In this document: positions 59,809 through 62,800 of the stretch, in pieces
Layout: each line of letters begins with the position of its first letter
Numbering within the stretch: the first letter of the stretch is position 1
Assembly: GCF_000026545.1 (NCBI RefSeq)
Contig: NC_011601.1
Length of the DNA: 64,000 bases
Origin: Escherichia coli O127:H6 str. E2348/69
Lineage (GTDB): Bacteria > Pseudomonadota > Gammaproteobacteria > Enterobacterales > Enterobacteriaceae
Reading direction: 5' to 3' (one strand)
Program-made: the position numbers

Positions 59809-62800
59809 TTATGTTGGCGTTTTCTATTCAGTATAGAAGTGGGAGCGGCTGGGTGAGATGCGAAAGTTCTGGAATGTTTCTTTTTTTTGGTGATGGTGAA
59901 CTGATGGTGACTGAAGAAGTTTGGCTACTTTTGCAATGTGACAAGTTATGGCAGAGCTGGCTGGTGGCGAAGAATTTTGACGATTGAGGCATGCAGAAAA
60001 AAACGGGTTCAGCTTCAGTTGATCAAATGGGGAGTGAGAAGTCCGAAACAGGACTTACTGTATAAATAAACAGCCATTTTGCTAAGCAAGGGTAAGATAA
60101 CGGCGGGTGCCTGAAGCTTTCCGGTTTCAGGTTTACTCTGAGGTCTGGAAAGATGAAGCCCCAGGAGATATTTCTATCAATCCTGGGGCTGCCACTCCAA
60201 ACCCAAACAATTTGGATGGTAGTCCCTTCTTCGCATGGAGGCAATATAAACATGCTGACGAAATATGCCCTTGCGGCAGTCATAGTGCTGTGTTTGACGG
60301 TGCTGGGATTTACGCTTCTGGTCGGAGACTCGCTGTGTGAGTTTACGGTGAAGGAACGTAATATTGAGTTTAAGGCTGTTCTCGCTTACGAACCGAAGAA
60401 GTAGCCGTTGTGCGGGGAGTAATCCCCGCATATCCGGTTGTCAGGTCAGGATGGTAAGGCACCTGCTTTACACTTTCGCCCGCAGTCAGAGATGGCTGCG
60501 GGCGAATCGTACCAGATGTTGTCAATTAATCGTGTTGGCACAGCGTTATGACTATTTTTTCTTTTATCTGCCAGTGCACAGCAAACATCTCATTCTCACG
60601 ATGAATTATGACCTGTTGTTTATTCCGGCTAATTATCTGATAGTCCAGAAAATCTGCATCAGTTTGTCTTTCACATGCCTTAAATGCGCCCTCTTTGGCG
60701 GAAAATGCCAGTGTCAGCGCCAGAGAAAAGGTTAAACCGCATTCTGCGAGTCGCTCGTGTTCTGCTGGTGTAATAATGTTGTCTGTCAATTCTCTTGCGG
60801 TTTGTGCAGAGAAAATCTCTTCAATATCAATGCCAATCGGTTGACGGGAAACCACGGCTAATGCCGTAGTCCCACAGTGACTAATGCTGCCGTATACACC
60901 CGCAGGCCACACAGGTTGGCGTAGCTCGCCGATTGCAGGCACACATTTATAGCCATATTCCCGCAGCGCATAAATTGCAGCGATCCGCCCGGCTAAATGC
61001 TCTGTTTTACGTTTACGTCCAGCGTGTTGAAGTTGTGCGTAGTGCGGCAGCCAGAGTAAATCCTGCTCGCGAAAACTCGCCGGATCAAACTCAACAAAAT
61101 GCAGCGTATGTCCTGCAAAGGGGAGGGAGGTATGCGTAGTTTTCATGTCAACCATATTAGAGAATGATGACAAACGCAAAACTGCCTGATGCGCTACGCT
61201 TATCAGGCCTACGTGGTCCTGCAATATATTGAATTGGCAAGATTTTTGTAGGCCGGATAAGGCGTTCACGCCGCATCCGGCATGAACTACGCGCACTTTG
61301 TCAACAATCTGACGTTAGCTTCAGAAGTGAGTATTAATGCTCATATACCACGTACGTCCCGGCTCGTTATAGGTATACGCCCCGGCACCTGCGATATAGT
61401 TGGCTCCTGCCAGATCGCCCGTGGTCTGGGCATTACCCGCACGCCACAAACGTTTGTCGAACAGGTTGTCCACGCCGCCGGTCAGACTGACATTCTTGGT
61501 CACATCCCAGGTCGCGCTCAGGCCAACAATGCTGTACGGACTGATTTCTTTGGTTTCCGGTCCAACCGCTGGCTGACCTTTATAGTTGTACTTCTTCGGC
61601 TGCTGTTTGCCGTACCAGGTGAAGGTCGTTTGCATCGACAAATCTTCCCGTGCCTGCCAGCTCAGCGTTGAGTTCAACGTATACTCCGGGATGATCGACA
61701 AACGGTCGCCCGTGGTTTTGTTTTCACTCTTCAGCATATAAGTGATGTTATTGGTCCACATCACCGTTTCGCTAACCGGTACGTTTAACGATCCTTCCAG
61801 ACCTTCAACCACCGCTTTCGGCACGTTATCCCACTGATAGAGATCGGTGCCGACTGCGTTTTGCCCTACAGCCACATAGCCCGCTTCAATCTTATTGCGA
61901 TAATCGTTACGGAACCAGGTCACGCCCGCCAGCCAGCCGTCGCGTTTGAACTCCAGACCAATCTCCTTGTTGATGCTGGTTTCTGCTTTCAGGTCATCAT
62001 TACCTTGCAGATAGCAGCCGCCCGCGCTGGCATAGCAGCCCTGACCTTTACTGTAGAGAATGTAGTTTGGGTTAGTCTGGTACAGACTCGGCGCTTTATA
62101 AGCGCGGGCAATGCCCATTTTGAGCGTGAAGTCATCGCCTAAACCTTGCGATATGTTCAGCGCCGGGCTCCAGTTATTGCCGACAATACTGTGATGATCG
62201 AAACGCAGCCCCGGCGTTACGATGGTGCTGTCAGTCAGCTCCATATTGTTTTCGGCAAACAGCGAGAAAATTTCTGCTTTTGAATACGGGCTACGGTCGG
62301 TGGCACTCACACCATCAATAGCACCGCCGGTATTCGTTCCGGTCAGCGCCTGGGTGTTGGAACTCAAGTCCTTCATCCGTTGCTGATTCCACTCTGTACC
62401 CAGCGTCAGCGTTTGGTTTACGAGGAAATCAATCGGCAGGTTAACTTCGCTGTGCAGCATCACGTCATCAAGATCGATATCGACGAAATCCTGTGCCGCT
62501 TTTTCGTTAAATTTCCCTTCAGTACCGCCCGCCAGACCTTCCGGAATACGCGAGTTACGGGTGTGTTCGTACTGCACCCAGTTGCTGGTGGTCACGCCGT
62601 TATCCCAGCCACCGTTCCAGGTCAGCGAGTAGTTCTGGCGATACAGGCGGTTGGTTTCATCGCCATATTTCGAGCGAGTGTAAGCGTCAGAGTTGGTGTT
62701 CTGCGTATCACCCGCATACAGGTTACCCTGGCGGCTGTAGCCCGCTTCCAGTTCGAGTGACTGCAGAGGCGCGAAGTCCCAGCGCACCACGCCATTAATA

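Follow-up and report, generated by a model that had tools for sequence, protein, structure and literature searches.

Among the closest known relatives of the locus described here is hok/mok/sok (parB) of plasmid R1, the paradigm for post-segregational killing. The chromosomal hokE locus of Escherichia coli shares most of its layout. Both have a weak promoter with a -10 element standing directly before a 5′ end that begins GGCG, a tac element near the 5′ end that pairs with fbi near the 3′ end, and a Sok antisense RNA made of a 5′ tail and a hairpin. Past the stop codon of the Hok/Gef toxin, both have a stem-loop, then fbi, and then a terminal hairpin. The differences lie in control and in the upstream reading frame. 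R1 hok is plasmid-borne and has no LexA box, whereas hokE is chromosomal and has one. In R1, the mok start at nt 116 precedes hok by 58 nt, is out of frame with it, and lies inside the Sok target (PMC9841398). hokE lacks a start codon at that position; the one ATG that it has upstream is about 45 nt nearer the 5′ end, where the SokE duplex reaches its far end.

The family has other chromosomal members. In K-12 hokC/mokC/sokC (gef) and hokA/mokA, the annotated mok shares its stop codon with hok and is an in-frame N-terminal extension of it; hokC and hokA adjoin IS186 or IS150. These loci have no LexA box. mokC starts canonically, 57 nt before hokC, whereas the leader ORF of hokE starts 99 nt upstream of its toxin gene at a nonhomologous site. 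In regulation, hokE resembles tisB/istR-1, symE/symR, and dinQ/agrB, where, as is predicted for hokE, a LexA box controls the toxin promoter and the antisense or antitoxin RNA is independent (PMC2826370; PMC8406316). The toxin families and RNA architectures of tisB, symE, and dinQ are unrelated to those of hokE. A persister phenotype has been demonstrated for tisB, whereas none is reported for hokE.

hokE is a textbook member of the LexA regulon. It is listed among the genes with a known SOS box (PMC6590174), and the K-12 box has an HI of 4.9 (PMC11228462). The expression literature is mixed: the transcript is reported to be SOS induced (PMC1891008), and hokE is up 3.5 after ciprofloxacin in EDL933 (PMC11125564), while K-12 treated with AZT gave 0.47-fold expression, with no induction and no lexA dependence (PMC11228462). 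Judging from locus structure, the hokE copies of EDL933 are free of insertion sequences. Nothing in this is new: the gene and its SOS box are established already, and so is the insertion of IS186 in K-12. Here we analyze the locus in strain E2348/69.

Results

Locus identity and the empty IS186 site

The window, a 64,000-nucleotide stretch of DNA, is 100% identical to E. coli E2348/69 and contains the gene order ybdK-hokE-entD-fepA. The hokE coding sequence lies at 60252..60404 on the plus strand; its ATG is at 60252, its stop codon ends at 60404, and it encodes a 50-aa Hok/Gef membrane toxin. The first-pass annotation had called this gene hokE, and three results bear it out. The protein has exactly the sequence of K-12 HokE, WP_000956455.1. 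Its match to Pfam PF01848 (HOK_GEF) scores 32.1 bits against a cutoff of 22 and spans profile positions 1 to 42 of 42. The leader matches the Rfam hok leader model RF01794 over its full length (positions 1 to 157; 85.7 bits, gathering score 59) at 60105-60260 on the plus strand, with position 1 of the model at 60105.

The K-12 locus (b4415/b4835) occupies the same place, between ybdK and entD. When the two loci are compared, the LexA core, the -10 element, the leader, the SokE region, and the SokE promoter are the same, and between 59980 and 60560 there are substitutions only, apart from IS186. The LexA box is flanked by CA...CT in K-12 versus TA...CC in E2348/69, and the leader peptides of the two differ at two residues, I10T and Q18R.

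In K-12, IS186B sits 18 bp past the hokE stop codon, in the 3′ stem-loop, with a duplication of 10 to 12 bp, and it parts hokE from fbi and the terminator. E2348/69 has no IS186 between hokE and entD; its 3′ untranslated region (UTR) is uninterrupted, and the fbi and terminator that are cut off in K-12 are intact. The target consensus of IS186 is a G-run, a short spacer, and a C-run. The empty target GGGGAGTAATCCCC, at 60414-27 on the plus strand within the 3′ UTR stem-loop, fits this pattern. The absence of IS186 had been pointed out; it is real, but it is the majority state and no peculiarity. Among 5,426 complete genomes, the site is empty in 3,641, and a K-12-type IS186 junction is present in 1,919. 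We therefore dismissed the idea that the absence is special.

SOS box and promoter

We compared 23 hokE units from 16 Escherichia genomes, drawn from E. coli, E. albertii, E. whittamii, and two further Escherichia species, and counted variable sites in a 13-unit alignment of hokE. Many strains have two or three tandem hokE copies, each with a LexA box.

In E2348/69 the SOS box is the 20-mer TACTGTATAAATAAACAGCC at 60056..60075, and its CTGT-N8-ACAG core, CTGTATAAATAAACAG, lies at 60058-60073. The 20-mer agrees with the SOS consensus TACTG(TA)5CAGTA at 16 of 20 positions, and the core is perfect. A bare CTGT-N8-ACAG is unremarkable on its own, because 0.59 are expected per window and the pattern turned up in 45 of 100 shuffles. 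The stricter pattern ACTGT-W8-ACAG, with an A/T-only spacer and a flanking A, matched none of the 100 shuffles. Across the 23 hokE units the core is unchanged, every tandem copy included, unlike the flanks of the box, which are 35 to 47% variable. Measured upstream from the hokE ATG, the distance is 179 bp to the end of the box and 194 bp to its start. The box first noticed about 180 bp upstream is the SOS box already known for hokE; in the promoter predicted by homology, it would cover the -35 region.

A consensus promoter scan of 59800-60560 made no call because the hokE and SokE promoters are weak, with 7 to 8 of 12 consensus matches. We therefore assigned promoters by homology and conservation. 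The predicted -10 element of hokE is TAAGAT at 60093..60098 on the plus strand, which is conserved in the family and has no variation in the 13-unit alignment. It aligns with TATGAT of R1, TATAAT of hokC, and TAGGAT of hokB, each of which stands directly before the conserved 5′ motif GGCGGGTGC. The predicted -35 element, CAGCCA (60071-76, plus strand), is weak and lies partly within the right half of the LexA box. Relative to the homology-inferred +1 near 60105, the LexA core lies at about -47 to -32. A literature search for "mokE" or the hokE transcription start site, with incomplete coverage of primary papers, returned nothing relevant.

SokE and the folds of the mRNA

The K-12 sokE gene (b4835; 607733..607792, minus strand) maps without indels to 60149..60208, placing SokE on the minus strand with its 5′ end at 60208. 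The RNA begins with an 11-nt 5′ tail, continues as a hairpin, and ends in a U-rich tail; it folds with -25.5 kcal/mol (z = -3.1). From sequence reading and conservation, its promoter is predicted to be TTGCCT-17-TACCAT at 60216..60244 on the minus strand. In the 13-unit alignment 60216-21 is invariant, and 60222-51 has one variable site, 60224, which lies in the spacer. The same hexamer pair was reported for this intergenic region by RpoD genomic SELEX (PMC3946193). The interval in which the first-pass annotation would have searched for this promoter, 60100..60200, does not contain it. As in the hok family generally, the locus has a predicted cis-encoded SokE that overlaps the leader and has its own putative promoter, and SokE is predicted to be expressed.

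Rfam mapping and folds predict a full-length hokE mRNA of about 400 nt, 60105..60510 on the plus strand. In both the MFE and the centroid folds, nt 1 to 8 (60105-12) pair with 60457-64 (z = -6.95). These bases belong to the 5′ tac element (60103-60112, plus strand) and to its partner, the fbi element AGGCACCUGC (60457-60466, plus strand). Substitutions in fbi keep wobble pairing across hokE units. RNAalifold, run on 11 units, prefers a neighboring register, 60109-14/60438-43, and does not reproduce the tac/fbi register; for the 5′-3′ pairing we retained the single-sequence fold and flag this disagreement. In the consensus fold, both hairpin 3 and the terminal hairpin show compensatory changes.

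Two structures follow the coding sequence. The first is the 3′ UTR stem-loop, at 60409..60432 on the plus strand, where the processed, active mRNA is predicted to end. The terminal hairpin is terminator-like, has 14 bp, and spans 60475..60506 on the plus strand, with a compensatory change from C-G to U-A at 60483/60498. It is intact, and, like the LexA box and the ATG at 60153, it was found exactly where the first-pass annotation had put it. In E2348/69 no U tract comes after this hairpin, and a terminator scan of 59800-60560 made no call because the T run is missing. When the truncated mRNA is folded, the Shine-Dalgarno (SD) sequence of the leader ORF is not released, so we do not claim an R1-like tac/ucb switch.

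Conservation and the question of function

The suggestion that the locus may be functional is made plausible by its conservation. Across at least five Escherichia species there is no variation in the LexA core, the -10 element, tac, the Sok promoter, or the hok TIR, while the adjoining bases vary freely. Variable sites in the hokE coding sequence fall 4/5/10 by codon position in the 13-unit alignment, a third-position bias. The RNA helices maintain pairing through compensatory changes, and the module has been duplicated and held as two or three tandem copies. HokE has served as a previously characterized toxic control in overexpression assays (bioRxiv 10.1101/2025.08.07.668861). What weakens the suggestion is that the tested IS-free chromosomal loci hokA, hokB, and hokC gave no post-segregational killing, according to literature cited in that preprint.

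All of this conservation also bears on a rival view, that the locus is retained in evolution but physiologically inert: LexA may bind and the transcript may be induced, with no functional toxin resulting, a proposal that has been made for chromosomal hok loci at large. In its favor, fluoroquinolone persistence in stationary phase did not change when hokE and five further SOS toxin genes were deleted (PMC8406316). It also draws on the absence of a canonical mok start in hokE and on the repeated insertion of IS186 (a junction in 1,919 of the 5,426 genomes) and of IS150 at the locus. Set against these points, the invariant control elements, the third-position bias, the maintained helices, and the tandem copies make an inert relic possible but, in our judgment, doubtful.

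The start site probably served by the SOS box

The box could serve a start other than the one assigned above, either that of a 5′-extended hokE mRNA driven by a TATAAA element or that of the divergent ybdK. TATAAA (60061-66) lies inside the box and differs from the -10 consensus at only one of its six positions, and a conserved block upstream of the box, AGAAGTCCGAAACAGGA (60036-52), is common to the tandem copies. However, reading the sequence upstream of TATAAA, we find no usable -35 element. No other part of the unit varies as much as the 17 bases that separate the box from TAAGAT (47%), which fits a promoter spacer and not a structured leader. As for ybdK, its start is 259 bp distant, and in tandem copies two and three the box is present with no ybdK adjoining. 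We consider another start quite unlikely and assign the box to the predicted TAAGAT promoter.

The upstream reading frame

The mok-like leader ORF of hokE, which is specific to this gene, occupies 60153..60251 on the plus strand. It starts at ATG 60153, 99 nt (33 codons) before hokE, and a GAGG at 60140-43, 9 nt upstream of the ATG, is its SD sequence. In E2348/69 it is in frame with hokE, giving an 83-aa ORF at 60153..60404 that was annotated already as a Mok-type regulatory protein in the original genome (CAS08030.1). An in-frame ORF alone is not statistically notable. The mok start is an ATG in R1 mok, mokB, and mokC, and in all three it aligns to about 60195-60200, where hokE has no ATG, GTG, or TTG. 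ATG 60153 lies about 45 nt upstream of this canonical position, where the SokE duplex has its 3′ edge. Neither ATG 60153 nor the GAGG varies in the 13-unit alignment, and the ATG is retained in 23 of 23 leader-intact units. The frame behind it varies. Thirteen of the 23 units are in frame with hokE, five have an ORF of 22 aa, four have one of 62 aa that is out of frame, and one has 17 aa. Variable sites in the leader ORF fall 3/8/2 by codon position in the 13-unit alignment, with no third-position bias.

The first-pass annotation had contrasted an in-frame extension with an overlapping mok frame. The frame was read correctly, but the contrast is false: in K-12, mokC and mokA are annotated in frame with hokC and hokA too. 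It had also raised the possibility of an 83-aa product. Because the frame varies (13 of 23), with indels shifting or stopping the ORF, and because there is no coding pattern, this product is not a conserved feature, and we rejected the 83-aa ORF as a conserved protein. It is hardly credible that the true product is an 83-aa N-terminally extended Mok-Hok fusion from ATG 60153: the open ORF with its well-placed GAGG, the same arrangement annotated for mokC/hokC and mokA/hokA in K-12, and the annotation of the 83-aa ORF in several records speak for it, but single-base indels yield the 22-aa, 17-aa, and out-of-frame 62-aa ORFs, Nissle 1917 included, both hokE copies of one Escherichia species have an indel-shifted ORF, the 3/8/2 pattern indicates a peptide that is not under purifying selection, the Hok/Gef profile begins only at residue 38 of 83, the GAGG is paired within hairpin 1 in the full-length and truncated folds alike, and in R1 it is translation of mok that matters and not the Mok product (PMC9841398). 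From the sequences compared, the in-frame fusion to hokE in E2348/69 appears to be an accident of indel state. Translation of the leader ORF, and not its peptide, could matter.

Discussion

The region is, with high probability, orthologous to hokE/sokE of K-12, a type I toxin-antitoxin locus, and E2348/69 has it in the IS186-free form, with a mechanism that we take from homology to R1 hok/sok and K-12 hokE. Its identity, the positions and conservation of its elements, and its predicted folds are direct results of this analysis. For the transcription start, LexA occupancy in E2348/69, mRNA processing, translational coupling, and toxicity, homology suggests the following course of events. A LexA dimer at 60056-75 would cover about -49 to -30 and repress a weak sigma-70 promoter with its -10 element TAAGAT at 60093-98 and its +1 near 60105. 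DNA damage would lift this repression. The resulting mRNA of about 400 nt would close on itself, its 5′ tac (60103-60112) paired to fbi (60457-66), and it would stay inert in translation until trimmed from the 3′ end back to the stem-loop at 60409-32. SokE, whose minus-strand promoter TTGCCT-17-TACCAT is presumably constitutive, would pair with the leader at 60149-60208, leader-ORF ATG included, and lead to mRNA decay. The end product would be the 50-aa HokE membrane toxin. Translational coupling in this scheme is uncertain because the canonical mok start is missing.

One further idea is worth stating, although we think it unlikely. hokE may have dropped the canonical mok start in favor of a lineage-specific leader ORF, starting at ATG 60153 and drifting in frame (in frame, +1, -1, or stopped early). 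Should HokE translation depend on that ORF, or on no ORF at all, hokE would be a functional SOS-triggered toxin in IS-free strains such as E2348/69, with a variant of mok-hok coupling that needs early leader translation only.

The locus has little significance beyond annotation. Database calls of an 83-aa "extended Hok" should not be taken as a conserved protein. K-12 is the atypical state for hokE experiments, because nothing interrupts the 3′ UTR in 3,641 of the 5,426 complete genomes. Whether chromosomal hok loci do anything is best asked in an IS-free background, for example E2348/69 or EDL933.

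Gene context and the predicted hokE promoter

In the E2348/69 window the gene order is ybdK (58681-59799, minus strand), hokE (60252-60404, plus strand), entD and fepA (both minus strand), and a 761-bp region is 100% identical to NZ_CP059840.2 (E. coli E2348/69). The HokE encoded here (WP_000956455.1) is identical to K-12 HokE and matches Pfam HOK_GEF at 32.1 bits against a threshold of 22. The leader, 60105-60260, gives a full-length match to Rfam RF01794 (85.7 bits; gathering score, 59). This model is named "sok antitoxin", but its 157-nt match at 60105-60260 is on the plus strand, the sense of the hok mRNA leader; annotated SokE is about 60 nt, at 60149-60208 on the minus strand, and an annotation copied directly from RF01794 would give "sok" the wrong strand. 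RefSeq/PGAP annotation in most genomes has neither sokE nor mok at hokE. It carries instead a "hypothetical protein, frameshifted" pseudogene (60015-60283, minus strand) antisense to the hokE leader, which looks like a spurious call. The iron-regulated fepA-entD genes (60526-63621, minus strand) are convergent with hokE.

The LexA box reported by the first-pass annotation, CTGTATAAATAAACAG, lies at 60058-60073, exactly as described. The bare CTGT-N8-ACAG pattern has 0.59 expected occurrences per window; with an A/T-only spacer and flanking A, it was found in 0 of 100 shuffles. Reviews already list hokE as LexA regulated with a known SOS box (PMC6590174), and in a 2024 table the heterology index of the K-12 hokE box is 4.9 (PMC11228462). 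To place the promoter, we aligned hokE with R1 hok/sok (the R1 sequence used is 100% identical to real plasmids over 437 nt), K-12 hokC, and K-12 hokB. All four loci have a −10-like hexamer directly 5′ of a conserved GGCG(G)GTGC motif: TATGAT in R1, TATAAT in hokC, TAGGAT in hokB, and TAAGAT (60093-98) in hokE. Since position 1 of the Rfam model also falls at 60105, we place the hokE +1 near 60105. The 16-mer box would then span −47 to −32 and cover a poor −35; a simple consensus scan called no promoter at hokE.

Conservation and tandem copies

Scanning a single genome from each species yielded hokE loci in E. albertii, E. whittamii, the E. coli representative, and two further Escherichia species. 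Together with further E. coli strains, the matches gave 23 leader-intact hokE units from 16 genomes. Of these, 22 have CTGTATAAATAAACAG as LexA core, and the remaining one has CTGTATAAATATACAG, which is nearer consensus. In a 13-unit alignment, only 1 of the 16 core columns varies, compared with 35% of the columns in the 20 bases 5′ of the box and 47% in the 17-base spacer between box and −10; TAAGAT and the tac motif are invariant. This pattern of islands is good evidence that selection acts on the box and on the −10 alike. Every copy in EDL933, E. whittamii (two copies), and 2017.09.02CC (three) is preceded by a LexA box, and the box travels with the hokE module.

The module is duplicated or triplicated in tandem between ybdK and entD in EDL933, E. 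whittamii, the E. coli GTDB representative, Escherichia sp. MOD1-EC7003, and a number of further E. coli strains; a single copy is present in E2348/69, K-12, E. albertii, and Nissle. Among the compared loci, copies lie at 2939-3091 and 3442-3594 in L004; L011, L012, L014, L019, and L021 have two each and L020 has three. Tandem copies are apparent in roughly 40% of spread-sampled rows of the nucleotide match list. The repeat unit, with a period of about 503 bp, is the whole module, from about 20 bp 5′ of the LexA box through the terminal hairpin. Its left edge is a block common to all tandem copies, AGAAGTCCGAAACAGGA (60036-60052), directly 5′ of the box; sequence further 5′ is unrelated between copies. 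After the terminal hairpin, E2348/69 (60507-60520) and the entD-proximal copies have AAUCGUACCAG, without a U tract, and promoter-proximal copies have AUUUCGUUUU instead. The copies may differ in termination efficiency and in read-through into antisense entD.

The leader ORF

An ATG at 60153, 99 nt 5′ of the hokE ATG, opens an 83-aa in-frame ORF, as the first-pass annotation had noted. Databases already contain this exact ORF: in the original E2348/69 genome it is CAS08030.1, "regulatory protein MokC for HokC 2". It had been set apart from a mok frame, a distinction that does not hold. In R1, mok and hok are read in different frames (ATGs at nt 116-118 and 174-176; PMC9841398, and also from sequence), and K-12 mokB is likewise out of frame, but K-12 mokC and mokA share stop codons with hokC and hokA and so are in frame; an in-frame mok is therefore nothing new. 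R1 mok, mokB, and mokC have ATGs that align to one position, about 60195-60200, where hokE has no start codon. Its sole upstream ATG, preceded 9 nt earlier by GAGG, is the one at 60153, which every one of the 23 units retains. This ATG lies about 45 nt 5′ of the canonical mok position, in the segment that separates hairpin 1 from hairpin 2, where the SokE duplex has its 3′ edge. The predicted folds of the full-length and the truncated mRNA both have its Shine-Dalgarno sequence base-paired within hairpin 1.

Across the units, the frame of this ORF relative to hok is not conserved. Of the 23 units, 13 have it in frame (83 aa); in 5 it is 22 codons long and ends 30 nt short of the hok ATG; in 4 (including Nissle 1917) it is a 62-aa, out-of-frame, overlapping ORF; and in 1 a premature stop ends it at 17 codons. 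In one E. whittamii copy, a pair of compensating indels alters 14 residues. Variable sites by codon position number 3/8/2 in the extension versus 4/5/10 in hok, and the Hok/Gef profile match starts at residue 38 of 83. Because of the variable frame, the codon-position pattern, and the profile start, we conclude that the 33-codon extension is at most a mok-like leader ORF and the 83-aa fusion an accident of the indel state in E2348/69.

RNA architecture and IS elements

In the predicted full-length mRNA (60105-60510), the first 8 nt pair with AGGCACCU at 60457-64 in both MFE and centroid structures (z = −6.95), the same pairing as the R1 tac/fbi arrangement (PMC9841398). Changes in E. whittamii fbi preserve G-U pairing, and hairpin 3 (60199/60213 and 60201/60211) and the terminal hairpin (60483/60498) both contain compensatory double changes. 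One caveat is that RNAalifold returned a neighbouring 5′-3′ register instead of tac/fbi. The 14-bp hairpin at 60475-60506 is present as first described. Transfer of the K-12 annotation places SokE on the minus strand, from 60208 to 60149, with a predicted free 5′ tail, hairpin, and tail. Its promoter, TTGCCT-17-TACCAT, lies at 60244 to 60216 (minus strand), outside the 60100-60200 interval in which the first-pass annotation proposed looking; an RpoD genomic-SELEX study gives the same hexamer pair for this intergenic region (PMC3946193).

IS186 is indeed absent from the locus. The curated K-12 record has sokE at 607733-607792 (minus strand), hokE at 607836-607988, and IS186B from 18 bp past the stop codon; K-12 and the window differ only by base substitutions and the IS. 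The insertion point is GGGGAGTAATCCCC (60414-27), with a 10- to 12-bp duplication. A junction-specific search of 5,426 complete genomes found the K-12 hokE-IS186 junction in 1,919 and the empty site in 3,641, so the IS-free state is the majority state. The junction also occurs outside the K-12 lineage, e.g., in STEC409. The empty target is the core of a 3′ untranslated region stem-loop (60409-60432), which should form the 3′ end of processed hok mRNA. Ec-050-T0 carries IS150 within the hokE leader (locus L006, 2932-4300, equivalent to about 60185) and IS186 downstream, and about 2 of 30 spread-sampled rows of the nucleotide match list break at about 60185. The locus is repeatedly targeted by IS elements.

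Is hokE functional?

All recognizable hokE elements are intact here and conserved across the genus, which argues for maintained function. Another intact element is at 60387-60390, where the Tyr46 codon TAC is followed by G (UACG); the 13-unit alignment shows no variation there. According to a 2026 preprint, hokC, hokD, and hokE mRNAs undergo A-to-I editing, which makes position 46 a cysteine needed for a disulfide (bioRxiv 10.1101/2025.08.07.668861). Expression evidence is mixed: ciprofloxacin-treated EDL933, which has IS-free copies, showed hokE up 3.5 (PMC11125564), but K-12 showed neither induction by AZT nor lexA dependence (PMC11228462). A study of extraintestinal pathogenic E. coli, in which Fur targets dominated, reported hokE as up-regulated in serum (PMC4145685); transcription reading through from entD on the antisense strand, not SOS induction, could account for this signal.

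Against function, hokA, hokB, and hokC without IS gave no postsegregational killing, according to literature cited in the same preprint (bioRxiv 10.1101/2025.08.07.668861), and deletion of six toxins including hokE left persistence unaffected (PMC8406316). The lack of a canonical mok start argues against function, as does the terminal hairpin without a U tract in E2348/69.

The observation of an IS186-free hokE behind a LexA box is confirmed, and its interpretation as an SOS-controlled, possibly functional locus with an extended product is partly right, for a system already known. The invariance of the box, the tandem copies, the unstable frame of the leader ORF, and the missing canonical mok start are small refinements to it rather than a discovery.
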